DNA of 64,000 nt from Candidatus Poribacteria bacterium. Lineage in GTDB: Bacteria > Poribacteria > WGA-4E > JAJDTR01. Location of the stretch: the NCBI GenBank assembly GCA_965222225.1, contig CBDCTK010000002.1, positions 4,102,296 through 4,166,295 of the forward strand, read 5' to 3'. The translations under genes were made by a program, and so were the position numbers. Positions 11,624-64,000 of the stretch are shown piece by piece. A model generated the notes under the pieces. The model saw only the letters and a list, made by a program, of their open reading frames with translations, made no database searches and was not told the DNA's origin. Positions within the stretch are counted from its first letter, which is position 1. Each line of letters opens with the position of its first letter.

Positions 11624-11668
11624 AGAGATCTCTGTCGCCCTTGCTGTTCACTCGGTTGATTGCCTACC
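11624..11668 (-). repeat. copy of modular dispersed repeat (reverse orientation)
   Basis: revcomp reads CGGTAGGCAATCAACCGAGTGAACAGCAAGGGCGACAGAGATCTCT. Confidence 0.5.
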
Positions 11669-12776: not shown

Positions 12777-12782
12777 CTCACT

Positions 12783-18262: not shown

Positions 18263-18295
18263 TCTGAAAGGATCTCTATCGCCTTCGCTATCCGA

Positions 18296-27821: not shown

Positions 27822-27959
27822 GGGGAATAACGAGGGATCAAGGGAACGAATAGTGACTGCGATAGAGATCCATGAAGGTATATAGAAACACCAAAACCCC
27901 GTGCACATAAGCCCCAGCGCGGGATCAAACGAACGAATAGTGAGTGCGATAGAGATTCC
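27822..27959 (+). repeat. two copies of the modular dispersed repeat (27822-27871 and 27921-27959)
   Basis: GGGAATAACGAGGGATCAAGGGAACGAATAGTGACTGCGATAGAGATCC ... GGGATCAAACGAACGAATAGTGAGTGCGATAGAGATTCC. Confidence 0.6.
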
Positions 27960-31763: not shown

Positions 31764-31813
31764 TGTGTACGGCGCGCTTGAAACTGCAGCTTTTTTTAAA
31801 AAAGGAGGAACAG

Positions 31814-32790: not shown

Positions 32791-32952
32791 GGGGTGCGCT
32801 TGGTCGGTGGCAGTTAACGTTGTCTGAACTGTGATTCATGAGAATACGGGATTACCTTGATTGTACGTGATTAGTTGCGAGTCATGAGGCGACTATTCCG
32901 CATCTTGCAGCCACTAGGAATTAGGGAAAAAACCTAGTCTATAAGAAAAAAG

Positions 32953-33105
32953 GGATGAACGGAGTGAACAGCGAGTGGGATGGACTATCGCACGGGATTT
33001 GCTATCGATCAAGTGAGCGAAAAGCGAACGCGATAGCCAGTCTTGCTCCTTATTCAGTCGCTTGATCGATATTCACTCACTTGACCGATAGAGGTCCCTT
33101 GCGCT
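32953..33105 (+). repeat. modular dispersed repeat, composite copy with internal inverted words
   Basis: GATCAAGTGAGCGAAAAGCGAACGCGATAG ... CGCTTGATCGAT ... TTCACTCACTTGACCGATAGAGGTCCC. Confidence 0.5.
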
Positions 33106-33175
33106 AAAAACTGTCGGTTGATGTCTAGAATATTGTAATTCGCATATTAATTTTGCTCTGACTAAGGAGGAAAAA

Positions 33176-34162
33176 ATGACATTCAAAGCTAGACGCTTGT
33201 CCGTGGCAGCGCGTGTCATGTCTCTGTTAATACAGATGCACATTGCAGAAAACGGTTACGCCTCTCGCAGAACCAAGATCGCCTTCTCCTCTATGCGTGA
33301 CGGGAATTTGGAAATTTATGTCATGGATGGCGACGGGAGAAACCAGAGAAGAGTAGCGGTAAATCCGGCAAGGGACGAATATCCGGCATGGTCTCCCGAC
33401 GGGAAAAAGATTGCGTTTGAATCCAATCGAAACAATGTAAACAAAGATCACAGGCAAATTTGGGTGATCGACGCCGACGGGAAGAACCCGATTCGACTGA
33501 CGGACGGGTTGGTGGACACTCATCCGGATTGGTCGCCAGACGGCACGAAAATTGTGTACGACGCCTATCTTGTTCCAGAGGACCATAATTTAGCACCCGG
33601 TGGGATTGCTGTAATGGATGCGGATGGGAACAACAAGAGGTTAGTTAAGAATGCAAGAGGCTCACAATCGTCCTGGTCGCCCGATGGAAAACGAATAGCA
33701 TTTATCGCCGGTAAAAATCCTGGTGACGACTCTCAAATTTACGTAATGGATGTCGACGGACGAAATCGGTTGCAGTTAACGCATGACTTTGTGCACAAAC
33801 GTTTGCCATCATGGTCACACGACGGGAAGCGCATCGCGTATGGTGGCGACAACGTGATTTGGGTGGTGGATAGCGACGGAGAGAATCCGAGGCAACTCAC
33901 GTGGCATGTTACGGAAGAACACCCTACATGGTCACCGGACAGCGAATCCATCGCGTTTCACTCTTTTGGAAGGGATCCTGGAATTGTTGGGATTTACACG
34001 GTGGATGTAACTATCGGCGCTGTCGACCCTTTGCCAAGTGATCCCGGCTTCCAGAATTACTATCCGGATTGGCTCTATCCCGGAGGACTCTCCGTTTCGC
34101 CGGAAGGTAGCCAGAATACAATTTGGGGCAGGATAAAGCAATTGGCGGTCAACCTGCGGTAG
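33176..34162 (+). CDS. TolB-like PD40 beta-propeller secreted protein, paralog 4
   Basis: AGGAGG RBS, signal peptide, PD40 repeats, tail NTIWGRIKQLAVNLR. Confidence 0.75.
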   Translation: MTFKARRLSVAARVMSLLIQMHIAENGYASRRTKIAFSSMRDGNLEIYVMDGDGRNQRRVAVNPARDEYPAWSPDGKKIAFESNRNNVNKDHRQIWVIDADGKNPIRLTDGLVDTHPDWSPDGTKIVYDAYLVPEDHNLAPGGIAVMDADGNNKRLVKNARGSQSSWSPDGKRIAFIAGKNPGDDSQIYVMDVDGRNRLQLTHDFVHKRLPSWSHDGKRIAYGGDNVIWVVDSDGENPRQLTWHVTEEHPTWSPDSESIAFHSFGRDPGIVGIYTVDVTIGAVDPLPSDPGFQNYYPDWLYPGGLSVSPEGSQNTIWGRIKQLAVNLR

Positions 34163-34305
34163 TTTGCACACCGAATCGGTGAAATCGAAGGGATTGCGGC
34201 GTGCCGCTCCGCTACCTAGTTCATTGGTGGTACATCCGTGCGGCAAGCTTACCACATTAAAGGAGGGAGAACATGCGAATCAAGTCGATAAATAAACGAG
34301 AGTAT

Positions 34306-34713
34306 TCACACAAAGATAGATAAGGCAATCTTCTGATACCGACGGAAGACCTCTGGGTTGGTCAAAGCAGTCCATAACTTCATGGCATTGTCCACCATCT
34401 CAAGTTTCTTGGATACTATTTTGGTGCGGCGTGTGAATCGTCCAAGATGATGGCGTGTATTGCTGTTATCACGTTCGACTGTTGCTGTCCCTGATTTCCC
34501 GATGTGATGACGCTCCGCAGGAAGTACCTTGGCAAACGCTTCCCAATTGTCAGTGTAATACTGGCAATCACTTAAGTGTTTCACTTTGTCGAATAGCCGT
34601 CTGAAGGTATCAGCATCACGACCACCGATAACCCAGGCAACGGTTTTGCCTGTTTCACGAGAAACTGCTTTGTGAATCCATCTTTTGTTTTTTTTGACCC
34701 GATAAAATGCCAC
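34306..34713 (-). CDS. insB: IS1-family InsB-like transposase ORF, expressed by -1 frameshift from insA
   Basis: KKNKRWIHKAVSRETGKTVAWVIGGRDADTF resembles IS1 InsB [26 protein letters not shown]; stop lies inside the terminal IR as in IS1. Confidence 0.7.
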   Translation of the reverse strand: MAFYRVKKNKRWIHKAVSRETGKTVAWVIGGRDADTFRRLFDKVKHLSDCQYYTDNWEAFAKVLPAERHHIGKSGTATVERDNSNTRHHLGRFTRRTKIVSKKLEMVDNAMKLWTALTNPEVFRRYQKIALSIFV

Positions 34714-35024
34714 ATCTCATCAAATTCCAATTCACGGGTATTGATTGGAATCTCAGGCTCCGACAACAGGGCTGCTTCCTTTGCAGGCCATTTTTGAACA
34801 GTACTTGGCGATACATTAAACAAGTTGGCAATAGTGCCGTAAGACGCTTTTGCAAGCGAGTAGAGAATTACTGCAAAAGCACGCTTGATGGTGGTTTGAG
34901 GGTTGGTTCTCTCGTCTCCCTCAACGAAATTATAACCGCACGTTTTACAACGGTATCGCTGTTTGGAACGAACGAATCCGTTTTTCGTGACTTCCGAACT
35001 TTGACAGTTCTTACAGTTTGACAT
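34581..35024 (-). CDS. insA: IS1-family InsA-like protein (zinc finger + HTH)
   Basis: CKNCQSSEVTKNGFVRSKQRYRCKTCGYNF zinc finger then HTH, then ELEFDEMWHFIGSKK at the slippery run, as in IS1 InsA/InsAB'. Confidence 0.7.
   Translation of the reverse strand: MSNCKNCQSSEVTKNGFVRSKQRYRCKTCGYNFVEGDERTNPQTTIKRAFAVILYSLAKASYGTIANLFNVSPSTVQKWPAKEAALLSEPEIPINTRELEFDEMWHFIGSKKTKDGFTKQFLVKQAKPLPGLSVVVMLIPSDGYSTK
34688..34695 (-). promoter_or_regulatory. programmed -1 ribosomal frameshift site (A8 run, TCAAAAAAAAC) between insA and insB
   Basis: minus strand UCA AAA AAA ACA in the insA frame becomes AAA AAA AAC AAA AGA UGG in the insB frame after -1 slip; same A6C-type site as in IS1. Confidence 0.6.
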
Positions 35025-35083
35025 AATATCTCCTTCCTGACCTTTCTGGTTAGTTAGAAGAATTATATCATAAATCTATCTAT

Positions 35084-36067
35084 ATGGCAATACTCTCAAG
35101 TAAACTTCTGTTTTTCATGGGACTATGCACATCCTTGGTGAGTGGGGAGCTATTGGTGGGAACCGGATTTACCTCGCACCACAAACCACAGATTGCATTC
35201 ACTTCTATAAAAGATAGGAATGCTGAAATCTATGTGATGGATGCCGATGGAGAAAACCAAATCAGGTTAACAAAACATGTGGCGAGTGACCGTCATCCCT
35301 CGTGGTCTCCCGATGGGGAGCGGATTGCATTCACTTCCAATAGAATTAGTATTGGCGGTGAAATGTACGTGATGGATAGCGATGGAAAGAATCTGATTAG
35401 GTTAACAAATGGAGAATGGGACACAAATCCAGCGTGGTCTCCTGACGGAAAAAAGATCGCCTTCGAGTCCTCTCCAGCGAAAGGTAATTCTGAGATATAC
35501 GTGATGGATGCCGATGGAAGAAATCAGACCCGACTAACAGATAGTCCGAGGTATGACGGACACCCGTCATGGTCGCCCGACGGTCAAAGGATTGCATTCG
35601 TATCGCAAAGGGGTGGTTTCAGGATTCAAATCTACGTGATGGACAGCAACGGCGAGAATCAGACGAGATTAACACACGATGGCGGGAATAAGCGTGAGCC
35701 CTCATGGTCTCCTGACGGGCAAAGCATCGCTTTCATGCTCAACAATTTTGCCTCGATTCAAATCTACGTGATGGATAGCGACGGCAAGAATCGGACAAGG
35801 TTAACAGACGGAAGGCACGACTGGAGTCCAGCTTGGTCGCCGGACGGCGAGATGATTGCATACGAGTCGTGGATAGGGGAAGACTTCCTTAGCAAAATCC
35901 ACTTGATGACTGCCGACGGAATGTACCTCAAACAACTCAGCGACTTGCACGAACGTGGAGATTACGATCCTGACTGGTTTGATCCTGCATCGCTTGGTGT
36001 GACTTCCGTAGGCATCACAATTACAATCTGGGGCAGGATCAAGAGATTAGCGTTGAACCTCCAGTAA
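35084..36067 (+). CDS. TolB-like PD40 beta-propeller secreted protein, paralog 5 (start codon lies inside the IS1 terminal repeat)
   Basis: signal peptide MAILSSKLLFFMGLCTSLVSG, PD40 repeats, tail ITIWGRIKRLALNLQ. Confidence 0.7.
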   Translation: MAILSSKLLFFMGLCTSLVSGELLVGTGFTSHHKPQIAFTSIKDRNAEIYVMDADGENQIRLTKHVASDRHPSWSPDGERIAFTSNRISIGGEMYVMDSDGKNLIRLTNGEWDTNPAWSPDGKKIAFESSPAKGNSEIYVMDADGRNQTRLTDSPRYDGHPSWSPDGQRIAFVSQRGGFRIQIYVMDSNGENQTRLTHDGGNKREPSWSPDGQSIAFMLNNFASIQIYVMDSDGKNRTRLTDGRHDWSPAWSPDGEMIAYESWIGEDFLSKIHLMTADGMYLKQLSDLHERGDYDPDWFDPASLGVTSVGITITIWGRIKRLALNLQ

Positions 36068-36244: not shown

Positions 36245-36282
36245 GGGGATCAAAGGAGCGGATAGCGACTGCGATAGAGATC
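36245..36282 (+). repeat. copy of modular dispersed repeat
   Basis: GGGGATCAAAGGAGCGGATAGCGACTGCGATAGAGATC. Confidence 0.6.
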
Positions 36283-36418
36283 TTCTCCAGGCCGAGACTT
36301 CATATCGCGAGCAGAACTCGCTCCTACAGAAGACGCGCAGTAAATTGCACTACTACAAACTGACCAACGTAAATCCTATATGTAAAATTCTTAGTTATAG
36401 CGACTATAGTCGAAACCC

Positions 36419-47770: not shown

Positions 47771-48244
47771 ATGACCATGAAGAGACGAAAGACAGTATAC
47801 CTTGCGAATCCCTACGGTTTCTCGGAGCAACAGCGGGAATACCTATTACCAGCCCTGATTCAGGCACTGGAAGCTATTGGCTTAGAGGTATGGGAGCCGT
47901 TTGAGCGAAACAACAATGAAGACATTTCGTTACCCGGCTGGGCATACCGAATTGGACAACGAGACAAGAATGATGTCGTTGAAGCGGACGCGATTTTTGC
48001 CGTCGTGAACGGTGTCCCGCCCGACGAAGGGGTTATGGTCGAATTAGGAATCGCGATTGCGCTCGGAAAGCCCACATTCCTATTCCGCGACGACTTTCGG
48101 GGTGCCGCCGATTCCGATGAATACCCACTCAACCTCATGGTCTTCACTGGCTTACCCCGCTGTGGATGGGAGCGGTACTACTTCAAATCGATAACTGAGA
48201 TTTCATCGCCCGACAAAGCATTGGCGCCTTGGGCAAAAATATAG
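47771..48244 (+). CDS. nucleoside 2-deoxyribosyltransferase-family protein
   Basis: TVYLANPYGF ... DAIFAVVNG ... MVELGIAIALGKPTFLF matches the NDT fold signature (YLAGPFF ... E.G.A.A.GKP). Confidence 0.7.
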   Translation: MTMKRRKTVYLANPYGFSEQQREYLLPALIQALEAIGLEVWEPFERNNNEDISLPGWAYRIGQRDKNDVVEADAIFAVVNGVPPDEGVMVELGIAIALGKPTFLFRDDFRGAADSDEYPLNLMVFTGLPRCGWERYYFKSITEISSPDKALAPWAKI

Positions 48245-50741: not shown

Positions 50742-51914
50742 TTACGAAGGTGGTGTATAGCAAGCGTCGATCCAGGCGCGTTTTGTACCGCTTTCGACCG
50801 CTTTATGTATGAAATGAACGCCGCGCGCCCCGTCCTGCACCGTCGGAAAGTCTGTATCGAATTCACCCGGCTGCTCGCCAGCAATTTTTGCCGCCATTGT
50901 GCGTGCTGCGTTGACGTAGATATTCGCGAAAGCCTCTATGAATCCTTCGGGGTGGCCAAACGGAATGCGGGAGTTGTGCTGCGCGATTTCGGCGACATAG
51001 CCGTTTCCTCGTTTGTAAACTTGCTCGGGGCCGTCCGGAAAACGAACGTAGAGGTAGTTCGGGTTCTCTTGATGCCAGTCTAACGAAGCGTCAGTACCGT
51101 AAACACGGATGCGAAGGTTGTTTTCCTCTCCCACCGACACTTGAGATGCGTAGAGGATTCCTCTCGCGCCGTGTTCGAAACCCACCAAGACGTTTCCGTC
51201 GTCTTCCAATTTGCGTCCCGGCACAAACGTCGTCAGATCGGCGCAAATTTCTTCTATCCCCAAGCCGGTGATGTAGTGAGCGAGGTTTTCCGCGTGCGAA
51301 CCAATGTCGCCGATACAAGAAGAAACACCTGTTTGATTGGGGTCTGTGCGCCAGACAGCCTGTTTGGTACCTTCCGCTTCCAAGAGAGTTGACAGCCAGC
51401 CCTGCGGGTATTCGACCACAATTTTTCGAACCGTTCCAAGCTGTCCGCCTCGAACCAACTCGCGTGCCTGCTTGACCATCGGATAGCCGGTATAATTATG
51501 GGTAAGTGCGAAGACGGCATCGTGTTGCGTCACTAGCCGACATAATTCCTCCGCGTCCTCTACCGTCGTTGTCATTGGTTTGTCGCAAACGACGTGGAAT
51601 CCCGCTTCGAGAAAAGTCTTCGCCGCATCAAAATGAATATTATTTGGTGTAACAATAGATACAAAATCGATTCGATCTCCTTCAGGTAGTTGGCTCTCCT
51701 TCTCTGCCATCTCCTTATACGAGCCGTACACTCGACTGGCGTCAAGTAGAAGCTCTTCGCCCTGTTGACGCGATTTGTCGGCGGATGAGGAGAACGCACC
51801 CGCGACTAGCTCAATTTCGCCGTCAAGTGCCGCCGCCTGCCGATGGACGGCACCAATAAACGCGTCCGGACCACCTCCTACCATCCCGTAACGTATTTTT
51901 CTTCCGAGTGGCAT
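50742..51914 (-). CDS. Gfo/Idh/MocA-family oxidoreductase
   Basis: [18 protein letters not shown] Rossmann start and conserved C-terminal alpha/beta domain. Confidence 0.8.
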
Positions 51915-52137
51915 ATTGGTATCTCCTTTGATGTTATGTATGCCAACAATCGTGTTGACCGAATCATTTTGAGACTGCTTTCGTAAGTCCTATCTATCTA
52001 GCAAATTACTGCATCCAAAATATCGATCCAATATAGCACGGTGGTGGGTTGCTGTCAATCACATAAAAAACGTAAATCGGAGCAATTGTCTCTATTCATG
52101 TGTGGAAATCCGTTATCTTGCACTCCTAATTCTCCGT

Positions 52138-53620
52138 AGGGGATCAAGTGAGTGAATAGCGAATGATCAACTGAGCGAACAGCGAAGGCGATAGAGTTCC
52201 CATAGAGATCCCTCCTCGCCCGCTCCCTTTCGGCAGAAATCCCTATATCCAACCACGCCCAGTCCATTGCGAACCACAATCCTGCGAGGCTATATGTAGG
52301 GTGCGCACCGCGCACCAGCCTTTTCGTCGTACTCGCGCGATAGAGTTCCTACCAGCCTTCCTATGCACCCGTAGGAGCGGCCTCGCGGTCTCGCTTGCGC
52401 AAGCCGGAGCGTCTGTCGTGAATATGCAGGTTGCGGGGCGGTGGAAATCCCCTCGGATGCCGGCGCATTATGCCCGCGCCGAGTTGGCAGAGCAAGGAGC
52501 AATTGCACGCTTCAAATACGGGAAAGACGGTGGGGGGTAGCGAACCGGGAAGGATAGTTGAGGGAAAGTACATATGTAGGGTGGGCACTGCCCACCATTT
52601 TTCTTAGGTGCGATTAACCGCCTGTTTAAGCCCGTGGGTTGGGATGAACGAAACCGAGAATTCCGGTGTCGACACACCAAACTTCCTCAAACTGGCTGAC
52701 CCGTCGGATAGCATCAAGGAAAGAGTGAAACCCAACTTCACCCCCTACGTCATCGGACACCTCCCCGGCAAACGTTGGGTTTCACTAGGATCACCGAGAA
52801 TTTATTCCGAATAGCGTCCCACAATCGTCGTGTCATGCTTGGTGTTTTTGCTTGTTACCGTTCAACCCAACCTACGCGCTTCCCACCATCTCTTATGGGG
52901 TACGATAGCCGATCCCGATAGAAATCCCTCAAGCAAACCAGATCGTGGGGGCGAGGTCTCCTCGCCCATTCTGTTGCGCACCCTAATCCCGTGCGGTAGA
53001 GCGTCCATTCCGCCAACCCCACACCTCCGCCACACCAATAAACGGCACATGCTCCTCCCACCGCCGACTCAACCCGCCGTTCCTAATCCACGTAATCCAA
53101 TAATCCATCAAGCGAGTGAATAGATCGTGTGACCGAAAAGGATCAAGGGCGCGAATAGCGACCGCGATAGAGATCCGCCATGTCTGTCGCAAACCGATAG
53201 CCCCGTCTTGCACTCCAGCTGAGAACAAGCGACTGAATGAGGAGTGATCGAACCAATGGACACTGAATACGATAGGGAATCCTGATAGTATTTCCCACTG
53301 CGATGGAGTTCTTAAAATGAAGTTAAACGTCGCGCCTTGCACTCCAGCGGAGTGCGATGTCGATAGAACTGCAATGCGTACAATCTTCGCGCTCCAAAGG
53401 AGCGCAATGTCGGTAGGATGGCGATTCGATAAGGATCAAACGAGTGAACAGTGGTCTCCGTAGGGGCGCGATCAACTGACTAGATAAGGAAGGATCAAGT
53501 AAGTGAATAACGATCAACCGACTGATTAGGGAGGACGATAGTAGATTCTGCGCGATAGAATTCCTATAGAGATCCCCCCGCGCCCAATCCCGCGCGATAG
53601 ATTTCTCATAGCAATCACGA
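52138..53620. repeat. 1.5-kb gene-poor tract densely packed with the modular dispersed repeat (at least six copies in both orientations)
   Basis: e.g. 52138-52212 GGGGATCAAGTGAGTGAATAGCGAATGATCAACTGAGCGAACAGCGAAGGCGATAGAGTTCCCATAGAGATCCC; 53107-53180; 53222-53290; 53410-53620; only short overlapping ORFs. Confidence 0.6.
52301..52540 (+). pseudogene. C-terminal fragment of a tyrosine recombinase (integrase) gene
   Basis: SGLAVSLAQAGASVVNMQVAGRWKSPRMPAHYARAE...ARFKYGKDG parallels the C-terminus of the intact integrase at 58873..59784 (GHSLRIGSAVSLAEAGASVKEVQRAGRWQEPTMPARYVREA...ARYKAGK). Confidence 0.55.
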
Positions 53621-53907
53621 CCGGGTTTCCATGACGGCCTGACTTCCAACAGCAAATCGAATCTTCCTCTTTATAGCCAAACGCCCTGCAGTAGTTCTAT
53701 TTGCTTGTTCGCTTTCCTCGGTGCTATACTTGCCACGCTATTCTACTTCGGTACAATAGCTGTTGTCAAATAAGCGATAGAGCAATTTAGCGCCATCGTC
53801 GGTTTCACGAGGCGCGCTGCTGACAGAAATCGAACCCAATGTGTCTTATCATACGTTCTATCGACTAATCGACTCCCGCGGCAAAACCAATCCGTGAAGG
53901 AAAAAAC

Positions 53908-54993
53908 TTGAGAATTGAAAACGTCGACTTTCCCAAACCGTTGATAGAAGCCTTGCATGACAACGAACTCGTAGTGTTCGCTGGGGCTGGCGTTTCAATC
54001 GGTAAACCTGCCCGTCTGCCCAGTTTCAGATCGTTGACCAATATTATCGCCGAAGGTACCGGGAAAACGGCGCGCGATGGCGAGACGCCTGAGCAATTCC
54101 TCGGAAGATTAAAAGACCAAGGCGTAAAAGTGCATGTGCGCGCTGCGCGACCGCTTTCTCAAGAAGGTTTGCAGGCTACGGCCCTTCATCAAGATCTTCT
54201 TAGACTCTATCCTAAAACAGCGCCCGTTCGCCTCGTCACCACTAATTTCGATCCCCTGTTTGAGCAGGCAGCCTTTGAGCAGGCAGCCGAGGAAATATTC
54301 GACAGTTCGCCAGAAGTATTCCGGGCACCCGCGCTGCCTTTGGGACGTGAGTTCGACGGCATTGTTCATGTTCACGGTTCAGTCCGTCGCCCTAACGAGA
54401 TGTTACTTACGGATAGAGATTTTGCTCGCGCTTATCTGACCGATGGCTGGGCTCGACGCTTTCTCGTCGAACTTTTCAGTAATTTCCGAATCCTCTTTGT
54501 TGGCTACAGTCATGACGACACGATTATGAATTATCTGGCCCGCGCGCTTCCTGCCGGTTCGGAATACCAACGTTTCATTTTGACCGGTTCCGAAGACAAG
54601 AAACCCTCTGATGATTGGCGTTCACTAGGGATTGAACCGATAGTCTACCCTCAGGCTAACGAAAATGACTATAGTGAACTCGACACAAGCATTCATGGCC
54701 TCGCCGAACTTGTACAGCGACGCGTTGTTGTTTGGAATGATGAAATAACCAATATAGCGCAAGTTCCGCCTCCCACTGACGAGAATAAGGCAGATCTCAT
54801 TGAGTACGCGCTAAGCGATGAAGTAAACACAAGGTTCTTTGCAAAAGCGGCTTCAGATCCTGATTGGATTGACTGGCTCGACGAGCGTGGACATTTGACC
54901 GCGCTATTCCGCGACGATATACTCACCGCGCAAGCCAAAACCTTGTCTTGGTGGTTGGCAGATCGATTTCTTTTCGGAATTAGTAGCTTGTAG
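53908..54993 (+). CDS. SIR2-like (DHS-like NAD-binding, SIR2_2 type) domain protein; candidate NADase defence effector, probably the 5' part of an IS-disrupted longer gene
   Basis: LVVFAGAGVSIGKPARLPSF (GAGxS), VTTNFDPLFE (TTNYD) and VHVHGSV (catalytic His) are the three SIR2_2 hallmarks; ORF ends abruptly 20 bp before an IS1595 element. Confidence 0.75.
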   Translation: MRIENVDFPKPLIEALHDNELVVFAGAGVSIGKPARLPSFRSLTNIIAEGTGKTARDGETPEQFLGRLKDQGVKVHVRAARPLSQEGLQATALHQDLLRLYPKTAPVRLVTTNFDPLFEQAAFEQAAEEIFDSSPEVFRAPALPLGREFDGIVHVHGSVRRPNEMLLTDRDFARAYLTDGWARRFLVELFSNFRILFVGYSHDDTIMNYLARALPAGSEYQRFILTGSEDKKPSDDWRSLGIEPIVYPQANENDYSELDTSIHGLAELVQRRVVVWNDEITNIAQVPPPTDENKADLIEYALSDEVNTRFFAKAASDPDWIDWLDERGHLTALFRDDILTAQAKTLSWWLADRFLFGISSL

Positions 54994-54999
54994 CTTTTA

Positions 55000-56215
55000 G
55001 ACTGACGACAAACATAAAACTTGGTACCCTGTCGTAAATCTTTTCGTCACACGTAGATGTCCATAGTGACTATTCTTCTCGTAGGAGTTTGCTATGGACA
55101 TTTTGAATCTTATGAAAGAGTTTCCAAATCAAGAATCTTGTCTCAGATTTATAGAGGAAAAACGTTGGAAGGACGGTGTTTGCTGTATCCACTGTGGCAG
55201 TGAAAAAGTTGGACGCAAGAACAAAAACGACATTACTACTGGTTGGAATTGCTACGATTGTGAATCTAGCTTTTCGGCTACAGCAGGAACCATCTTCCAT
55301 GGTACCAAGATACCTCTCCAGAAATGGTTTTTGGCTATCTCAATTCTTTCCAATGCCAAGAAAAGCATATCGAGTTGTCAGCTTGCTCGTGACTTGGACA
55401 TGAATCAAAAGTCCGCTTGGTATATGGCAATGCGCCTCCGTGAGAAAATGAGTGATAGTGATGAATTGCTGAAAGGGATAGTTGAAGCGGACGAAACCTA
55501 TGTCGGCGGCAAACCCAGAGCAAAATCTAAGAGAGGTAGAGGCACAAATAAATCTCCCGTCATCGGCGTAGTCGAGAGAGGCGGTCGGGTGGTTGCTAAA
55601 TTCATGAAGGTTCTATCTGGTGAAAATATCAGAGAATTCATCCTTAGCAATGTCTCACCCGATGAGTCTATTCTTATGACTGATGAATTTCGCTCTTACA
55701 ATAGTCTGGACGAAGATATCGAAAGACATGTTATCCATCACCAAGAGAGATATGTTTCTGAGGACGGCGTAACTCACACCAACACCATCGAGTCGTTTTG
55801 GGCTTGTGTCAAGAGGTCATTCTACGGAACGCATCATCACTACAGCAAGAAGTGGCTGCCACTGTATATCATGGAGTCTTGCTGGAAATATAATCGCAGA
55901 AAAGATGATGAGATTTTCATAAGATTTTTTGATGAATGCTTCACCTGAGCCACATGAATTGTTTGGCTATCGGTATATTCTGTCAACGACAACATCATGG
56001 TGTGCTGAAAATCCCATAGTGTTGGAAATTAAAATCCCGCAGATAACCCGCAATGCTCCCGCGAGCATGTACAAACGCTTGGTCAACATGATATGCCTCC
56101 ATTTCTCTCTTATAGAGATGTATTTTAGTGTGAATCAAGATTCCGAACACTGTCTAAAATGATTGTACATTAAGAAGAGAAAAGCAAGCAAATCGACCAA
56201 AAAGCAGTTAACTAC
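55000..56215 (+). mobile_element. IS1595-family insertion sequence (boundaries approximate)
   Basis: single transposase gene with N-terminal CxxC zinc ribbon and E-x-DETYVGG motif; I could not define the terminal inverted repeats by eye. Confidence 0.55.
55094..55948 (+). CDS. IS1595-family transposase
   Basis: CIHCGSEKVGRK...CYDCESSF zinc ribbon; EADETYVGGKPRAKSKRGRG; DDE-type C-terminal region. Confidence 0.8.
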   Translation: MDILNLMKEFPNQESCLRFIEEKRWKDGVCCIHCGSEKVGRKNKNDITTGWNCYDCESSFSATAGTIFHGTKIPLQKWFLAISILSNAKKSISSCQLARDLDMNQKSAWYMAMRLREKMSDSDELLKGIVEADETYVGGKPRAKSKRGRGTNKSPVIGVVERGGRVVAKFMKVLSGENIREFILSNVSPDESILMTDEFRSYNSLDEDIERHVIHHQERYVSEDGVTHTNTIESFWACVKRSFYGTHHHYSKKWLPLYIMESCWKYNRRKDDEIFIRFFDECFT

Positions 56216-56274
56216 TAAGTCCCTTTCTTTTCAACCATGCAAACAGACTTTTCCTGCTCATTGGTAAGCATAAT

Positions 56275-58626
56275 ATGCGCTTGCATCCGCAGCTCTGGCG
56301 CGATATGGGTTGGAAACTTGCGAGGAATGGTGAAGTTTTTTCTGATAAAGACACGCTTCGCCGCTGGTTTTCACTGTTGCTTACCTCTCTTCGAGAGAAA
56401 ATAAGCATGAACGATCTGATGCATGTCGACACGGACTATCTCCTGCCTCAGATGGGTGAACTTTGCATAGCAAACGAAATGCTGGATGATTTATTGCAGA
56501 TATTCGATTGGATGATGGAAAGTCGCATTCGGATTAACAAAGGATACTCGTGGCCTTCTGCCGACGATGACAGGGAAATACCCTCTGTTGATGCTGAATT
56601 AATTCCAATTAGCGAACAACACGAATTGAATGAACTGTGGGAAGTGGGACTGAAGCCTAAGCTACCTCAAGTAGCCAAGCCGTTACTCGATCGGGTAATC
56701 AGGCGGCTAGAAGGACAATATCTCACACTGTGTACTTGGGGAAAGGTGCACGGCACATGGGATCCAATGAGCGAGGGACGTTCTGCCATTGAGCCTGAAG
56801 AAGGGGATGGTAATACCGAATCGATTGATGTGATGATCAATGCGGCCCGCGATTGCCTCTTATGGCTGGCTTCCAATCAGGTAGAAACAGCGACACAATG
56901 GTGTAATCGGCATGTGCGTTCGGGAGTAACTCTGCTACGCAGACTTGCGGTACATGGGGTGTACAAACGCGAAGATTTAACAGCAGACGACAAAATTGAT
57001 TGGTTACAAACACACATAAATCAGATTGGGTTGTCGGTTGGCGCCGAAGTGTTCCCGTTACTACAGCAAGCCTATCCCGAAGCCTGCCCGGCACATCGAA
57101 GCTCGCTTATTGAAGCCATGTGGACTTACCGTTGGCCTAAGGAAACAGCTTCGGACGGAGATAAGCATGCGGCAAGGCAACAATTCGACTGGTTTAATTG
57201 CATCCATCGATGTGTTCCTGACTGCCTCTTGGCTAAAGCAGCGTTGGATAAAGTGTTGGCGCGGTACCCAGAATTCAAGTCGATGGTACCTCAACCTCCG
57301 ACACAAGGAGGCATATCAGGTCCAATCGCGCCGCAAAGTGCTCCGCCCCCTGAAGAACTACCGCCAACACCTTCCGCCGATCAACTACACGAGTTACTGT
57401 CAAATCAAACTGCAGCGTGGGATGAAGCTAAACATAGTCAAGTATTCCAGAGGCTTGTCAGAATTGAGTTGTATCCAAAATATAGTCACGCGATTGCCAA
57501 TGCGCTCTATGCACTGGTAGAGAACGGTGGTCCCTCCTATGCCTTAAAACTACTCCCGCAAGCCCAGCGAATCGCTTCGGCACTGTGGCCCCATCTTGAC
57601 CGGACCGCGCCAATCGATGCAAGAGGAGACTGGCTATTCGCCGCCATGAATCACCCGGCAGGGCTCCTGGCTTACTTCTGGATATCTGCACTCTCACTCT
57701 GGCGCGAGCACCACGATCCTAAACCTACAATTCTCAACGATGACTATCGTAGGGCGCTGTCCGACATTGTGGTGGACCGGTCGCCGGCAGGTACGCTCGG
57801 GCGGACGGTTCTCGCCAGCAAATTGCATATTCTCTTGGACGCTGACCAGGTATGGACACGTGAATATCTTCTTCCGCTTTTTGACCCGTGCAGCGATGAC
57901 TTCCAAAGTGCGTGGGACGGTTTCGTAAAATGGGGAAAGCTCAATCCTTCGGTCGCTAAAGCCATGACTGATCTATTCCTCAAGGCAGTTACGCGGATCG
58001 GCACCGACCTCTTCAACCAACGTGATTCATTCGTAAAACACTACATCGCTATGCTCATAGATTCCATTTATATCGCCGAAGACCCTCTCAGCGAATGGAT
58101 TCCTAAGATATTCAATCACGGCAGCCAAGATAGTCCTTCTGCCGATAGCGAACCTACGCTTTTTCCCCGCGCCAATCGATCTATTGCGGAGATCTTTGCA
58201 TCAGTTATGAGTAGCCGCTTACGGAATATGCCTGAAACCGAGCAGCGGGAGTTGTGGGAGCACTGGCTCAAGGATTACTGGCAGAATCGCCTGGAAGGTG
58301 TGCCCTCCCCACTTATGTCTAGCGAAGCTAAACTCATGCTCGATTGGCTGACGGCTTTGACTGCGGTATTTCCCGATGCCGTCGCGCTTGCTGTCCAGAT
58401 GCCATCGACTTCGTTGGAGCGTACGAGGATTCTATCTTCTCTGGTGAAAAATAGTACATGGTTGAGCCATCCCGATGCGGTCGCGAAGTTATTGATTTAT
58501 CTGTGGCAATGCGGTATACCGGCACACTATTGGCACTTAGTGCAGAAGATCGTTGCCCCCCTCGTCGAGTCGAAAATCCCGGCAGAACTTCAGCAGAAAC
58601 TGGAGGACATCAGAATCCAACTCTAG
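56275..58626 (+). CDS. large all-alpha-helical protein (783 aa), possibly the displaced C-terminal sensor part of the SIR2 gene
   Basis: reading frame is open upstream of the annotated Met back to 56217 with no RBS; highly helical, Leu/Ala/Trp-rich repeats. Confidence 0.5.
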   Translation: MRLHPQLWRDMGWKLARNGEVFSDKDTLRRWFSLLLTSLREKISMNDLMHVDTDYLLPQMGELCIANEMLDDLLQIFDWMMESRIRINKGYSWPSADDDREIPSVDAELIPISEQHELNELWEVGLKPKLPQVAKPLLDRVIRRLEGQYLTLCTWGKVHGTWDPMSEGRSAIEPEEGDGNTESIDVMINAARDCLLWLASNQVETATQWCNRHVRSGVTLLRRLAVHGVYKREDLTADDKIDWLQTHINQIGLSVGAEVFPLLQQAYPEACPAHRSSLIEAMWTYRWPKETASDGDKHAARQQFDWFNCIHRCVPDCLLAKAALDKVLARYPEFKSMVPQPPTQGGISGPIAPQSAPPPEELPPTPSADQLHELLSNQTAAWDEAKHSQVFQRLVRIELYPKYSHAIANALYALVENGGPSYALKLLPQAQRIASALWPHLDRTAPIDARGDWLFAAMNHPAGLLAYFWISALSLWREHHDPKPTILNDDYRRALSDIVVDRSPAGTLGRTVLASKLHILLDADQVWTREYLLPLFDPCSDDFQSAWDGFVKWGKLNPSVAKAMTDLFLKAVTRIGTDLFNQRDSFVKHYIAMLIDSIYIAEDPLSEWIPKIFNHGSQDSPSADSEPTLFPRANRSIAEIFASVMSSRLRNMPETEQRELWEHWLKDYWQNRLEGVPSPLMSSEAKLMLDWLTALTAVFPDAVALAVQMPSTSLERTRILSSLVKNSTWLSHPDAVAKLLIYLWQCGIPAHYWHLVQKIVAPLVESKIPAELQQKLEDIRIQL

Positions 58627-58680
58627 CAATCAATGTGACCAGTTTCAATCTGATGAATCAGATTGATGACTATTATTGTA

Positions 58681-58810
58681 GGGTGGAATCTGCGATCAAG
58701 CGACTGAATAAGGAGCGATCAAAGGAATGGATTATGACTGCGATAGGAATCTCTATAGAAAATCCCACGCGATAGAGCTCCCATAGCAAATCGCGTACGA
58801 TAGAAAGTCC
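58681..58810 (+). repeat. modular dispersed repeat, multi-word copy
   Basis: GGGTGGAATCTGCGATCAAGCGACTGAATAAGGAGCGATCAAAGGAATGG...GCGATAGAGCTCCCATAGCAAATCGCGTACGATAGAAAGTCC. Confidence 0.6.
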
Positions 58811-58872
58811 TTTGGCGCCAGTAGGGCGTGATTCGATACTGTTCAAATTCGTCGTATTCCGCTCTCGCCTTC

Positions 58873-59784
58873 TTACTTCCCAGCCTTATACCGCGCCACT
58901 GGACTCCGTTCCGACGGTGCCTCCCTCACATACCGCGCCGGCATCGTCGGCTCCTGCCACCGCCCCGCTCGTTGCACCTCCTTCACGCTTGCCCCGGCCT
59001 CTGCAAGCGACACCGCAGACCCGATACGAAGCGAGTGTCCGCTAATCAATCCCGTCACTCCCGCTTCCGCCGCCCGCCGCTGTATCGCCGCGCGCCCCCC
59101 CTTCACCCCCAGCCGATCGTCAGTCACATGATTCTGGAAGCGTATCCTCCGGAACAAAGCCCCCGACGCAATCCCCGCTCTCGTTCGATACCGCTCTATC
59201 AACCGCCGTGTCGATTCACAGATATACAGATTCTCGCCCTGGTCCTCCCCGCTTGTCCTCTTGCCGTAGACCTGAAGCCCCTCGGCTCTAACATCCTCCA
59301 CATCCACTGCAACCGCCTCCGAGATGCGTAACAGGCAATCGCTCATCAGCCTAATCATGGCGGCATCACGGGTGCCCGCCGCGGTATCTGACGATTCCGC
59401 CGCCGCACACACCCGCTCCACTTCGTGCCACGTAAGCCCGTCTACCTGGCGCCGCCCGCGCCCTTTACCTTCGCCGCGGATATCAGACAATGCGCGAGCG
59501 GTGATGTCCCCAACCACATTGCCAACCCCACGGTACTCCGCCATCCACTTCACCGCGGACACGACCAGCTTGATCGTCGCCGGCGATTTCCCCTGTGCAT
59601 ACAGAAACCTGATATATTCCGCCAGCACCGCATCCGATAGGGCACGTCCGTCTAGCCAAGCTTCCAGCTTGCGGCTCGCGTGCTCATACGCCTTGAGCGT
59701 GTTATCCGCCACGTTTGCCCGAATCTCCTGCCCCGTACCCGCGGCGATTCGCAACCCCCTATCCGATTCCTTGCCTTGCTTCAT
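58873..59784 (-). CDS. tyrosine recombinase / phage-type integrase
   Basis: C-terminal catalytic box GHSLRIGSAVSLAEAGA...AGRWQEPTMPARY (H-x-x-R ... Y) and N-terminal SAM-like core-binding region. Confidence 0.85.
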   Translation of the reverse strand: MKQGKESDRGLRIAAGTGQEIRANVADNTLKAYEHASRKLEAWLDGRALSDAVLAEYIRFLYAQGKSPATIKLVVSAVKWMAEYRGVGNVVGDITARALSDIRGEGKGRGRRQVDGLTWHEVERVCAAAESSDTAAGTRDAAMIRLMSDCLLRISEAVAVDVEDVRAEGLQVYGKRTSGEDQGENLYICESTRRLIERYRTRAGIASGALFRRIRFQNHVTDDRLGVKGGRAAIQRRAAEAGVTGLISGHSLRIGSAVSLAEAGASVKEVQRAGRWQEPTMPARYVREAPSERSPVARYKAGK

Positions 59785-59956
59785 GATAAACCCCTCGTCA
59801 GATTTATACCACCGTTGCCATATTCATCGACCGCCCAAGCCGTCGAGCATAACTGGCACCCCAAGTGAACATGGCAACACGAATATCGTTACATACAGCC
59901 AGTGTTGAGGAATCTCGACCTTTCTGCCTTGGAGCCTGTTTGAAAAGTACAGTTTG

Positions 59957-60225
59957 TAGGGTGCGATCAAAGGAATGAATAATGACTCCGATAGAGATCC
60001 CCTGCGATCAAGCGAATGAATAATAAGCGATCAACTGAACGAATAGTGAAGGAGCAACTGACCGATAGGGAAGGCGGTAGAGATCCCATAGAAAGTCCTG
60101 ATAGAGATCCTACCAGCCTCTAAAAGCCCCCAGAGTGGGATCAAGGGAGATCCAATGAGCGAATAGCGAATGCGATAGGGATCCCTGATAGAGACTGCGA
60201 TAGAGATCCTAACAGGTATGTAGCA
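59957..60225 (+). repeat. modular dispersed repeat, long multi-word copy
   Basis: GGGTGCGATCAAAGGAATGAATAATGACTCCGATAGAGATCCCCTGCGATCAAGCGAATGAATAATAAGCGATCAACTGAACGAATAGTGAAGGAGCAACTGACCGATAGGG...GCGATAGAGATCC. Confidence 0.6.
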
Positions 60226-60301
60226 GCCAACAATGAAAACATGAAAAAACTCTCTACAAATGACCAAAAATGGCTTTGCCACCGATTATTCAAACAGGCT
60301 C

Positions 60302-61155
60302 TTAGAACACACCCTCCCTTACCATCGTTCGGTTCAACTTCTTCACCACCGCCGGCGTCACCGGATCGTTGTCCGGGAGGAATCCCTCTCCCTTCTTTAG
60401 TTTAACAGCCGCAACACTGTCCAACTCAGCCAGCTTCTTAGCCCCTTGCACCGCCTTCAGATCGCCCCCGTAGTACTCGTACCAAGGCAGCTTCGCGTTT
60501 GTGTAATCCTGAGCCGTCGGCGGCTTCCCTGGCGGCTCGCAACCCGTCACTTTGAGGAGCTCCACGCGCTATTCACGATATGAACGAAGCAGCGCGAGCC
60601 GGTCGACGTGTCCCACGCATCGATGCCGTATTCGTCCTCGTATATCTCCTGCCGCATAAGACCGCCCGGCGCCAACCCCATCCGCGGTTCCTCGCGAAGT
60701 ACATAGTAGTCTGCTCTGCTCAGGTTCTTATCAAGTGGCAGTTCCTCGTATATCGACCGCTTCATCGGATAGACAGCAATCTGGAGCCCGCCGTGCTCCG
60801 CCTCGCCCGTTAGCTGCTCCTCCGCCGTGAAACCCTCACCCAGCGGCATCGCCACGAACTGCCGAATTAGCCCCTTCTCCACGCAGAACCCGTCCAACCA
60901 CGGTTGACCCGGCACCACCAAGTAATCCTGCCGCTCCCCGCTGAGCTCCTCCTCCCATGCCCCCCCGGTCACCGTGTTGACTTTGCCCGCTGCTATCTTC
61001 ACCGCCATCGGATAGTCGCCGTGGAAACAGATCCACATCGCCTCCGCTTGATACATCGGGGTGAACACCCCGCCATGTTTCCTCCACGTTTCCGGCAAGT
61101 TATCCGGGTAGTCGTCCACTCGACTCAGCGGGAATCTCCCAAGCCCCGGCGGCAA
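60302..61155 (-). CDS. hypothetical protein, apparently frameshifted (60547..61155 and 60302..60565 overlap by 19 nt in different frames)
   Basis: ORFs only; no recognisable motif; the two pieces abut as expected for a single disrupted gene. Confidence 0.3.
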
Positions 61156-61727
61156 ATAATGTTTTCGGTTGTCGTCCGGAATCCGCAGCGTACGCTGGAA
61201 TTCAATCGCGAGCTCGGCAAATCCGTATATCTCCGGAAATCGAAATATAATCTAATCGTTTCTCAGTTCAATAGTTTTTTTCCCGTTCCTAGTCCTATTA
61301 GCCATAATCATAGACCTCTCTGTTTTTTAATTCCTGATGAGCAAAACACTTCAACACGTAATATGTATTATAACAGGATTTATATAACTTAACAACCGAA
61401 AACATCAAGCCCTTTCCAATTCAGCCCCGCCGCCCTTGTAGCCCCTCTTCTACGGTCGCAATCCCCCGGCGGACGCGCCCGCTGTTCGTGGCGTGGGGTA
61501 CGCTGCACACTGCTATCAAGCCAGCTAGCCGGCGAATACCGAGTGCGGTAGACATCCCCTCCAGCCGGCGCCGCGCAAATACGCCTAAGCAACGGGCAAC
61601 GGCAACCCTCGAAGCGATGCGGGCTGCTTTGGTGTCGTGCCGAGGCGCCGCCCTGCGCCACCAACTGATCGAACATATTGATGGATTGAAAAACGATAAA
61701 GCGAATGGCCAACTGACTGGATAATGA

Positions 61728-61805
61728 AGGATCCACTGAGATCAACCGACTGATTAGGGAGGACGATAGTAGATCCTGCGCGATAGAGTTCCCATAGAGA
61801 TTCCA
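61728..61805 (+). repeat. copy of modular dispersed repeat
   Basis: GAGATCAACCGACTGATTAGGGAGGACGATAGTAGATCCTGCGCGATAGAGTTCCCATAGAGATTCC. Confidence 0.55.
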
Positions 61806-62161
61806 TGAATCCTAGTTCGGACAATCCCGTCCCCTTCCCCACTCTCCACCGCTCTCTCAAGTGCAAAAGATTTACGGAGTTGGTAGTTAGAGACTGGCAA
61901 TATTGAACAAGCACGTATACGTATGAGTGGGAGTGTAGTTATTTTCTGACACCTGCACATAAACGTGCTATTATACGGTAAGTATCAAGAAGTTCATCCG
62001 CTATCAGGGAAGGGTGGCATACGATAACAGCACACGACACAACAGCGAATTTATTATAGCGCTTCTCTATTGGCTTAGGTATAGTATAATGGGGCGGTTG
62101 CAACACAGTGGCGATTGATTCGATACATGCAACACATGAAGATAAAAGAAGGGATAAACCA

Positions 62162-64000
62162 ATGACACGCTTTATTTGTATCCTAGCCTTGCTCCTAGGC
62201 CTGATGACATGGGTATACGCCCAACCCGTCAACATGCCCGACCCAAACCTACGCACCGCAGTGCGCGAATCTCTTGATCTTCCAAATGGCGCACCGATTA
62301 CGCGTGATGCTATGCTTCAGTTGATTAAGCTTCGTCCTGGAAGCCGCGGCATTGAAAATCTATCCGGTGTGGAGTTCGCAAAAAACCTCAGAGAACTATC
62401 AATCTGGGGCAACCCCATAACCGATCTCAGTCCTATCGCCGGACTAACTAAGTTGGAACTGCTGTACATGTGGGGGACACCGATTTCGGATATTACACCA
62501 CTAGCGAATCTGGCGAATCTGATAAATTTGCGTCTGAACTATTGCAACGTTGCCGATATAAGCCCAGTTGCACATTTGCTTAAACTTGAGAAACTGTCAT
62601 TAGCCGGAAATGGGATCACCGACGTTGGACCTCTTGCCAACTTAACGCAACTCCGACTCCTCAACCTCGAAAACAATGGCATTGTGGATGTGCGTCCGTT
62701 GGCGGGCCTGCGTCGATTAGAAACATTAACAATAGAGGGCAACCGTATAACAGACCACAGTCCACTTGATGGATTGTCGTTGGAACACTTTACACATGAC
62801 CTCGAAACGCCGTGCGACATGGCGCCGCTTCCTTTGGAGCCTCGTATAGAGAATAGAAACTTCCCCTCCCTCTTTTCCGCCTGGATCGATCGGAATAAAT
62901 ACTCGGCATACGATTTGATCTTCTGCTGCCCTCGGTTCGAGAGTTGGCTTGTTGAAACGGCCGACGGTTTTCAATTCCGTACCGCGCATTCATCGTGGGA
63001 TGGACCGGTTCAGATACGCGACGGCTACCTAGAACAAAACCCGACTATGGTATTTTTGCACGGACTATCTGTAATTTGGCATGAGCTGGACTCCCTGCCC
63101 GAAGATTCTCCTTGGTGGCTGCGTGATGAACAAGGGAACATACTTCCAGCCTGGGATATGGGCTTAATGAATCTTAATCATCCGGGTTGGCAGCAGCGGA
63201 TGATTGACATAGCGGCGACTATAGATCAATGCGGTTTGTACGACGGGATTTTCATCGACGGCTGGAGTGAATGGCATAACGAACGGCGCGGGCAACTACC
63301 GGGGCAGGTGGCTATTCTCAAAGGGATACGCGAAAGGGTGCGGGACGATTTTCTTATCATGGTGAACACAAATACCTGGACAGCACCGGTGTCGGCACCT
63401 TACATCAACGGACTGTTTTTGGAATCCGGCTTTCCGGGCGATAGCAACTCACCTGAAGATCTTGAAGAACGTCTGTCGGAACTAGAGGATACGCTGAGAT
63501 GGGCTGAGACCACACTGCTGGAGCCTCGAATCACCGGACTCGAAGGAAGCAACTACCGTGACGAACCGCCAGACAACCCAAAGAATATGCGGTGGATGCG
63601 GGCGACTACCACTTTGGCGCTCACGTTTAGCGACGGTTATGTTGCTTTCCCGTTACGAGGAGGACCTTGGTACGATTTCTGGAATGCCGACCTCGGACGC
63701 CCCGTCGGAGAGACTTTGCAGCTCTATGAACACCGCCCAGGTCTCTACATCCGTGAATTCACGAACGGTTGGGCGGTATACAACCACAGCGGCGCGGCGC
63801 AGGTTGTGACATTGCCGGAAGATGTACAATCAGTAGCTAGCGGATTGAGCAACACGGAACATGCCGTGCTTAACCTGGACGGCGATATTTTTTTGCGGGT
63901 GACGCCGAAGAATCCAGCGGACGTGAACGGGGACGGGGTAGTGAATATCTTGGATTTGACGTTGGTGGCACAGGGGTTCGGCGGCGATCGACCGGGCGCC
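62162..64000 (+). CDS. secreted leucine-rich-repeat protein with central TIM-barrel-like (glycosidase-like) region and dockerin-like C-terminal repeat; runs off the window end
   Basis: my own translation from ATG 62162 (GAAGGG RBS) is open for 613 codons to 64000; signal peptide MTRFICILALLLGLMTWVYA; 22-residue LRR units L..L..L.L..N.I.D..PLA; DVNGDGVVNILDLTLVAQ matches the dockerin type I Ca-binding repeat. Confidence 0.6.
   Translation, partial: MTRFICILALLLGLMTWVYAQPVNMPDPNLRTAVRESLDLPNGAPITRDAMLQLIKLRPGSRGIENLSGVEFAKNLRELSIWGNPITDLSPIAGLTKLELLYMWGTPISDITPLANLANLINLRLNYCNVADISPVAHLLKLEKLSLAGNGITDVGPLANLTQLRLLNLENNGIVDVRPLAGLRRLETLTIEGNRITDHSPLDGLSLEHFTHDLETPCDMAPLPLEPRIENRNFPSLFSAWIDRNKYSAYDLIFCCPRFESWLVETADGFQFRTAHSSWDGPVQIRDGYLEQNPTMVFLHGLSVIWHELDSLPEDSPWWLRDEQGNILPAWDMGLMNLNHPGWQQRMIDIAATIDQCGLYDGIFIDGWSEWHNERRGQLPGQVAILKGIRERVRDDFLIMVNTNTWTAPVSAPYINGLFLESGFPGDSNSPEDLEERLSELEDTLRWAETTLLEPRITGLEGSNYRDEPPDNPKNMRWMRATTTLALTFSDGYVAFPLRGGPWYDFWNADLGRPVGETLQLYEHRPGLYIREFTNGWAVYNHSGAAQVVTLPEDVQSVASGLSNTEHAVLNLDGDIFLRVTPKNPADVNGDGVVNILDLTLVAQGFGGDRPGA

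Follow-up and report, generated by a model that had tools for sequence, protein, structure and literature searches.

Is the tract between about 51.9 and 62.2 kb of a 64,000-nucleotide stretch of a Candidatus Poribacteria genome (GenBank assembly GCA_965222225.1, contig CBDCTK010000002.1, positions 4,102,296 to 4,166,295; hereafter the window) the scar of one integrated element, or was it put together from several? An earlier note, made from the letters of the window alone, had described the tract as a decayed integrative and defence island that carries a SIR2 gene and is closed in by two integrase sequences. We find that the region is a decayed defence islet of a known kind. The label of decayed defence island is fair, in that the tract is non-core, is decayed and holds a defence gene that appears to have come with an integrase, but the picture of one element with two eroded ends was not upheld. 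The tract is probably a mosaic and largely dead variable islet of two independent small modules, each with its own Cre-like tyrosine recombinase. The only intact genes left in it are one of these recombinases, int303, and the transposase gene of an insertion sequence (IS), and we infer that nothing in the islet now confers defence.

The tract lies between an oxidoreductase gene and a leucine-rich repeat (LRR)/dockerin gene. The left neighbour, a core gene outside the islet, encodes a GFO/IDH/MocA oxidoreductase (50742–51914, minus strand; PF22725, PF01408 and PF02894) whose product is 83–85% identical to proteins of six Candidatus Poribacteria genomes, where a TIM-barrel gene always adjoins it; these matches place the host in Candidatus Poribacteria. 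The right neighbour, with domain hits to LRR, GHL15 and dockerin (62162–64000, plus strand), continues past the end of the window. Comparison with relatives, which the earlier note had proposed, bore out the non-core character of the tract: all six genomes keep the GFO–TIM pair, with no integrase or Dsr1 gene (the defence gene described below) within 10 kb, and the islet is therefore absent from the same position in these species-level relatives. Beyond the gene pair, nothing else of this neighbourhood is kept in them.

The left part of the tract belongs to module A, a unit of about 5 kb in which an integrase gene, int321, is followed by Dsr1. Intact copies with differing flanks were found in two related contigs (L001 and L002); in both, Dsr1 is immediately preceded, on its own strand, by an intact integrase gene (275–321 aa). 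The int321–Dsr1 segment (5.0 kb at 89% identity) is all that the two contigs have in common, their flanks being unrelated. The unit begins with ATAGTATTTCTA and ends with TGTAGGGTGGAATCTGC, and its 3′ boundary is marked by a copy of the motif TGTAGGGTG (58677–58685, plus strand), 12–25 bp past which homology to L001, L002 and a third contig, L003, stops.

Alignment of the window to L001 and L002 showed that its copy of int321 is reduced to the final 52 codons and the stop (52385–52540, plus strand). This remnant is 93% identical in DNA to L001 4586–4786, the 3′ end of the intact integrase, and 88% identical to L002, and its translation is 94.5% identical to residues 267–321 of Int321. The open reading frame (ORF) at 52301–52540, which had been taken for an integrase C-terminus, does end in one, but is integrase-derived only over the 52 codons. 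The truncation point is abutted by TGTAGGGTG with a GC hairpin and then ACCAGCCT (52295–52321, plus strand), an element that resembles repetitive extragenic palindromic (REP) sequences, folds at −18 kcal/mol (z = −2.4) and matches copies in L084, L086 and L002 at 96% identity. A second TGTAGGGTG with a terminator-like hairpin lies 3′ of the remnant (52575–52597, plus strand; the terminator scan returned 52580–52596 followed by ATTTTTCTTA). The spacer between the remnant and Dsr1 has an insertion of 836 bp (52586–53421) relative to that of L001 and L002, part unique and part repeats, and window positions 52585 and 53422 align to L001 4786 and 4803. Its unique portion of about 0.5 kb (52586–53106) has no match in any locus that we fetched. 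The small ORFs of the spacer (52541–53907), including those of the insertion, have no Pfam match. The earlier note had described 1.5 kb of repeats here, whereas the spacer measures 1,367 bp, about 0.5 kb of it is unique, and only about one third recurs elsewhere.

Downstream of the spacer, the ORFs 53908–54993 and 56275–58626 are two parts of one gene. The 5′ part (53908–54975, plus strand, with a TTG start) has a SIR2_2 domain (PF13289, 9.1e-23 over residues 109–245), matches a Dsr1 model of PADLOC (PDLC02183, 1.3e-36, profile positions 8–353) and is 94% identical in DNA to L001. Its 361-aa translation contains the motifs TTNFD and HVHGS, which may correspond to the catalytic Asn and His of ThsA. 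The 3′ part (56233–58626, plus strand; ORF of 783 aa) carries DUF4020 (PF13212, 1.4e-11; PADLOC PDLC04167, 5e-14). Full-length relatives found by homology search are about 1,150–1,210 aa long, the best being P0001 (1,148 aa, 95% identity). The gene is split by an IS1595-family element of 1,248 bp (54976–56223, plus strand; transposase ORF 55094–55948). Its transposase matches PF12762 (1.2e-36), a zinc ribbon (PF12760, 9.2e-07) and NCBIfam NF033547 (transpos_IS1595, 188.6 bits against a cut-off of 75). The terminal inverted repeats are GGAATTAGTAG and GGGACTTAGTAG, and a 9-bp target duplication, TTTCTTTTC, stands on either side within the SIR2 gene (54967–54975 and 56224–56232). L001 carries the corresponding empty site, TTTCTATTC. 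When the IS and one copy of the duplication were removed in silico, 1,153 codons without a stop were recovered, 94.9% identical to P0001. Neither the window nor the fetched loci showed a further copy of this element.

The SIR2 gene and the IS1595 element had both been recognised correctly from the letters; what had gone unremarked is that the second lies inside the first, and that the 783-aa ORF is the C-terminal part of the same gene. Dsr1 in the window is thus a pseudogene, and since the IS interrupts it, it is presumably inactive. Because the IS is the sole lesion in Dsr1, the knock-out is probably recent. The ORF at 53908 begins with TTG and the 95%-identical orthologue P0001 with Met (MRIENV...), and this TTG may be a weakened start codon.

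Dsr1 is also found without its integrase partner. In L003 it stands without int321 between housekeeping genes, a third context, and is interrupted by an IS1 element (12648–13420) that is 95% identical to window 34298–35097. Close Dsr1 relatives occupy three genomic contexts other than that of the window, so that the unit is known from at least four contexts overall, and two different insertion sequences have each inactivated it once (IS1595 in the window, IS1 in L003). The stretch at window 34298–35097 (minus strand) is itself an element of the IS1 family (PF03400), whose two ORFs overlap, with a T-run between them.

The closest known system is defence-associated sirtuin 1 (DSR1; Gao et al. 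2020). DSR1 of Bacillus is reported to deplete NAD+ and to defend against phage phi29 (Garb et al., bioRxiv 10.1101/2021.12.14.472415). An intact Dsr1 of the present kind would likewise protect against phages as one protein only, its SIR2 domain using up NAD+ when a phage infects. Like DSR1, it is one large protein with an N-terminal SIR2_2 and a C-terminal DUF4020 domain that fits the Dsr1 models of PADLOC; the restored window ORF of 1,153 aa compares with model lengths of 1,227–1,275. Unlike DSR1, the window gene is interrupted by IS1595, its host is a sponge symbiont, and in its relatives the gene is tied to a Cre-like integrase as a 5-kb unit.

The right part of the tract is module B. Its integrase gene, int303 (58873–59784, minus strand), had been called a tyrosine integrase, and this was borne out: it is an intact gene for a Cre-like tyrosine recombinase of 303 aa (PF00589, 1.9e-15), and its best solved relative is Cre (about 50 bits over residues 54–298). 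As in Cre of phage P1 and other small, accessory-free tyrosine recombinases, the protein has about 300 aa and no arm-binding domain, and the residues aligned to Cre R173, H289, R292, W315 and Y324 are all conserved, among them the Trp characteristic of Cre. The match to Cre is weak (E = 5e-13), and no lox-like inverted-repeat site was identified. Xer models of NCBIfam scored below cut-off (XerD 67.4 bits against 329.6, XerC 58.9 against 335), and no match to the integron-integrase model was obtained, the best NCBIfam match being a weak Xer-type one of 67 bits, with cut-offs of 220–335. The closest relatives of Int303 (P0121–P0124) are 92–94% identical, and 1,727 homologues at E ≤ 1e-10 make up a large Poribacteria family, the best 120 of which are 73–94% identical. 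Int303 and Int321 are only 52–58% identical, and their genes lie on opposite strands.

In six contexts (the window, L084, L085, L086, L087 and L088–L097), int303 is adjacent to the same upstream gene, unk333. Outside the window this partner encodes 330–337 aa without a Pfam domain and lies 40–145 bp upstream of int303 on the same strand; P0391 is an intact example. L001 and L084–L093 come from sponge-metagenome assemblies of the ENA series ERZ2506–ERZ2507. The top-120 lists of the two proteins have 24 contigs, matched by size, in common, and some genomes carry at least two copies of module B, several long contigs holding two. The window copy of unk333 is a pseudogene (60302–61305, minus strand) that the earlier note had not recorded. 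By protein alignment it is 96–98% identical to intact 333-aa orthologues, and it is broken by a TAG at codon 18 (61252–61254) and by a 2-nt GC insertion near 60566 that shifts the frame. Between unk333 and int303 lies a miniature inverted-repeat transposable element (MITE) of 370 bp (59932–60301) with perfect 13-bp terminal inverted repeats, GAGCCTGTTTGAA, and no coding capacity. L084 and L086 have the empty site, the element is flanked by a 2–3-bp duplication, and further copies occur in L002, L084 and L086.

Upstream of unk333, a conserved region (61306–61775, minus strand) is 95% identical in DNA to L084 and L086 and includes an AT-rich, promoter-like patch (61367–61395). A promoter-like TTGTTA-17-TATAAT lies there, although over the region as a whole such matches are not above chance. 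The tract had been said to end in an AT-rich segment at 61.2–62.1 kb; the GC content of successive 100-bp windows (0.38, 0.31, 0.65, 0.62, 0.57, 0.49, 0.50, 0.38, 0.45 and 0.42, against 0.504 for the whole window) does not agree with this, and AT-rich sequence is confined to two patches beside gene starts, at 61.2–61.4 kb and 61.9–62.16 kb.

Directly 3′ of int303 lies a conserved non-coding element of 63 nt (58810–58872, minus strand), recognised by comparison of paralogues: copies that agree at only 77% over their coding sequences agree at 94% here. The window has a single copy of the element, which L085, L086 and L087 (10913–10975) also carry and which is absent from L084 and L090. No notable RNA fold was found in it (z = −0.5), nor was a lox-like inverted repeat seen, direct repeats being present instead. 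It could be a protein-binding or recombination site. The gene on this side of int303 varies: type I restriction-modification with AAA_15/DUF3696 or AAA_16 proteins in L085 and L086, an adhesin in L084, DUF6884 and transport genes in L087, cupin and glycosidase genes in L088–L097, and Dsr1 in the window. Because of this variation the link of module B to defence is only partial, and half of the contexts (L084, L087 and L088–L097) are without defence genes. A general link between Cre-like integrases and defence was rejected, since 54 more distant Cre-like integrases from Joint Genome Institute (JGI) sponge metagenomes had neither unk333 nor Dsr1 nearby, and only about 4 of 45 of their neighbours matched PADLOC. 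In L088–L097, from another Poribacteria species, a 151-aa fragment with only the IS1595 zinc ribbon (4382–4837, minus strand) lies immediately upstream of the pair, whose first gene is there unk334.

We also asked what unk333 might be. It had no match in Pfam, NCBIfam, PADLOC or PHROGs, and none among solved structures by sequence or profile search. The family is large and unannotated (3,034 cluster representatives at 50% identity, E ≤ 1e-3), and some members are fused to ubiquitin and RING, Sel1, TPR, VWA or DUF932 domains. With a diverse alignment, AlphaFold gave a confident, beta-rich model (mean predicted local distance difference test score, pLDDT, 82.6; predicted template-modelling score, pTM, 0.82), whereas with a shallow alignment the pLDDT was 37. 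Foldseek of the model against the PDB returned nothing below E = 0.07, and against BFVD only uncharacterised viral proteins, mostly of giant viruses. A gene for an XRE-type helix-turn-helix (HTH) protein lies directly upstream of the unk333 homologue in 15 of 34 viral-collection loci (L153, L154/L158, L157 and 12 more) and in two megaplasmids (L187, a Euzebya plasmid, and L188, a Bosea plasmid), and two or three distinct viral contigs carry a large serine recombinase (integrase) beside it. One such pair of HTH and unk333 proteins is WP_114594674/WP_114594673 of Euzebya pacifica. No HTH homologue was found at the Poribacteria unk333 loci. Outside Poribacteria, XRE-HTH plus unk333 is thus an unannotated two-gene operon on mobile elements. 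As a hypothesis only, unk333 may be an HTH-regulated effector carried by such elements. We regard it as a doubtful but conceivable extension that unk333–int303 is a new minimal mobile module of cargo and Cre-like integrase, in which unk333 would be an unrecognised effector, perhaps in defence or exclusion. Linked to this is the possibility that cargo such as Dsr1 and restriction-modification genes is exchanged by recombination, either at the 63-nt element behind int303 or at the TGTAGGGTG sites.

These observations are consistent with the following course of events. Each module would have arrived by site-specific recombination through its own integrase. Module A would then have decayed by reduction of its integrase to 52 codons, entry of the 836-bp segment into the spacer and splitting of Dsr1 by IS1595, and module B by the nonsense codon and frameshift in unk333 and the MITE between unk333 and int303. 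The spacers are filled by lineage-specific REP-like hairpins and short repeat arrays.

The repeats bear on how the modules moved. In the window, GCGATAGAGATCC (≤2 mismatches) has 24 matches against 1.7 expected, 15 of the 24 lying in the islet and all of those on the plus strand; GATCAAGYGAGTGAATAG (≤3 mismatches) has 20 matches against 0.09 expected, and TGTAGGGTG has 8 against 0.17. Three classes could be told apart: TGTAGGGTG with a 7-bp GC hairpin behind it, placed immediately 3′ of genes and on their strand; MITEs with TGTAGGGTG inside; and arrays of 11–23-nt units, which do not fold (z = +0.6). One such array, of 23-nt and 11–12-nt units, forms the left border of the islet (52138–52230, plus strand), and elsewhere only dispersed copies of it are found, in the window and related loci. 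The repeats are intergenic across the window and concentrated in the islet. They are specific to the lineage: L001–L003 and L084–L087 have them, 106 kb from six other Poribacteria genomes contain none, and in 1.1 Mb of loci from outside Poribacteria there are almost none. No Rfam match supported an RNA explanation of the repeats or of the 63-nt element, and cyanobacterial HIP1 or STRR-type repeats were dropped, as the flanking genes put the window in Poribacteria. Outside the islet, arrays of GATCAAGYGAGTGAATAG and GCGATAGAGATCC units were also seen between genes at 5108–5143, 11626–11661, 18270–18304, 27836–27958, 33007–33097 and 36247–36283.

Could the islet be an integron-like cassette platform, in which int303 or int321 recombines gene-sized cassettes at TGTAGGGTG-type sites to give variable defence arrays? 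Homology between related contigs does tend to stop at TGTAGGGTG or just past it, 3′ of int321, Dsr1 and hsdR; the Dsr1 unit of L003, which begins 25 bp ahead of the start codon and extends to the TGTAGGGTG site, looks like a cassette; int303 is followed by type I restriction-modification in L085 and L086 and by Dsr1 in the window; and 4 of the 8 TGTAGGGTG sites of the window fall within these 10 kb. However, TGTAGGGTG with its hairpin also stands behind an ordinary gene (25616) and inside MITEs, and looks like a REP or terminator family. The integrases lack an integron-integrase signature and match only Xer models, weakly (67 bits against 220–330), the neighbouring genes are not co-oriented, L084, L087 and L088–L097 carry no defence cargo, and few neighbours of the distant relatives match PADLOC. 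Cassette exchange is possible at the TGTAGGGTG breaks, and recombination between dispersed repeats explains them equally well; as a whole, we consider the platform unlikely.

A single classical integrative island with one integrase, whose second integrase copy and repeats are eroded ends, was the architecture proposed by the earlier note. Integrase sequences are indeed present, one intact copy and one remnant, two of them flank a defence gene, and GC content is atypical in parts of the tract (0.62 in both integrases, 0.623 in int303, and 0.417 in the IS1595 element). The two integrases are nevertheless too different to be copies bracketing one element, given the identity and strands noted above, and each has a different partner gene in other contigs, the modules being found independently as int321–Dsr1 (L001, L002) and unk333–int303 (L084–L097). 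The border checks that the note had suggested also failed to reveal an integrated element: no unique flanking pair of direct repeats that could serve as attachment (att) sites attL and attR was found, every border repeat belonging to a dispersed family, and ARAGORN found no tRNA or tmRNA target in the 64 kb, nor was there an Rfam match. The longest att candidate, a 65-nt direct repeat at 53512 and 61740, is dispersed and also occurs in L084 and L086; a 21-nt pair (58819/62106) and a 20-nt pair (52339/60100) proved to be members of dispersed families or weak matches on a 10-mer seed. The repeats cannot be read as erosion scars, since REP-like hairpins, the MITE and the short arrays are found genome-wide and are not att scars. 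A single island is therefore decidedly unlikely.

It is very improbable that the locus is ancestral, not acquired, and has decayed in place. In favour of this, both int303 and unk333 occur widely in Poribacteria, their identity falling smoothly from 94% to 72%, and the P0240 locus is stable over at least 10 assemblies. Against it, none of these genes stands beside the GFO gene in the six Poribacteria genomes, close relatives carry the modules in different surroundings, and the GC content of the integrases and the IS is atypical. Mis-joining of the modules at short repeats in a chimeric assembly is suggested by the junction at 58691–58710, a dispersed repeat copy at which homology to the Dsr1 contigs stops and homology to the int303 contigs starts, but is highly improbable, as the common repeat is only about 20–60 bp, the internal structure of each module is confirmed by independent contigs, and L085 and L086 are arranged likewise, their convergent cargo running up to a terminal TGTAGGGTG beside the int303 3′ spacer.

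Several points nonetheless weigh against two integrase-borne modules. Neither module yielded att sites, target duplications or excised forms, so that arrival by integrase is only what we infer. A candidate empty site for module B in L002, where the segment of window 61549–61775 stands right after Dsr1, was rejected, the segment being itself a dispersed, repeat-flanked element. Because both modules end at REP-like repeats, they could instead have been moved by homologous recombination between such repeats. Absence from relatives is a weak test, as those genomes share only about 85% protein identity and little synteny past two genes. No closer strain with an empty site was found, and searches for exact copies of three window proteins (GFO, TIM and the IS transposase) were empty. 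A chimera is conceivable because the join at 58691–58710 lies in a repeat, and the frameshift in unk333 might in principle stem from faulty assembly; the other two lesions, the nonsense codon and the MITE, are independent of it.

Several components of the islet can be compared with known classes. The IS agrees with the IS1595 family in its transposase domains (ISXO2-like DDE), in passing the equivalog-domain cut-off, and in having short terminal inverted repeats that start with GG and a target duplication; it differs in that this duplication is 9 bp, the family usual being 8 bp. The window repeats share with REP elements an extragenic position immediately 3′ of genes and a 5′ GTAG ahead of a palindrome, which is here GC-rich; no REP-associated transposase (RAYT) came to light in the 64 kb, no search aimed at one having been made. 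The 370-bp element resembles MITEs in its perfect 13-bp terminal repeats, its empty site in relatives and its several copies. Unlike in either class, the hairpin is often replaced by long, non-folding arrays of 11–23-nt units, and the families are limited to one Poribacteria lineage. With defence islands and integrase-marked hotspots the tract shares a variable, partly defensive cargo (type I restriction-modification, AAA_15/DUF3696, Dsr1) beside a conserved integrase and a high load of IS and MITE; unlike these, it is very small (10 kb) and has no tRNA target, att repeats, phage or conjugation genes.

By itself the islet, in which Dsr1 is dead and whose host is an uncultured sponge symbiont, adds little. 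What it shows is turnover of defence genes at the strain level, with the same Dsr1 lineage knocked out by IS1595 here and by IS1 in a related contig. This turnover fits the reported enrichment of sponge microbiomes in defence and mobile-element features (PMC5099237). Useful leads are the compact 5-kb unit of integrase and Dsr1, which appears to be mobile, the recurrent pair of unk333 and integrase, and the widespread, unannotated operon of XRE-HTH and unk333 on plasmids and proviruses. If unk333 is an effector, it would be one more family for the catalogue of defence genes or toxins.

Some minor features were seen elsewhere in the window. A nucleoside 2-deoxyribosyltransferase-family gene (PF05014, 1.4e-26; 47771–48244, plus strand) adjoins argJ. 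Three TGTAGGGTG matches (31355, 32552 and 33920, minus strand) lie inside ORFs in 30786–34162, near 35084–36067, and are coding coincidences, not REP-like sites. The surroundings of those at 32552 and 33920 are closely similar, so that their ORFs look like paralogues, and the ORF at 35084–36067 has a repeated WSPDG-type motif.

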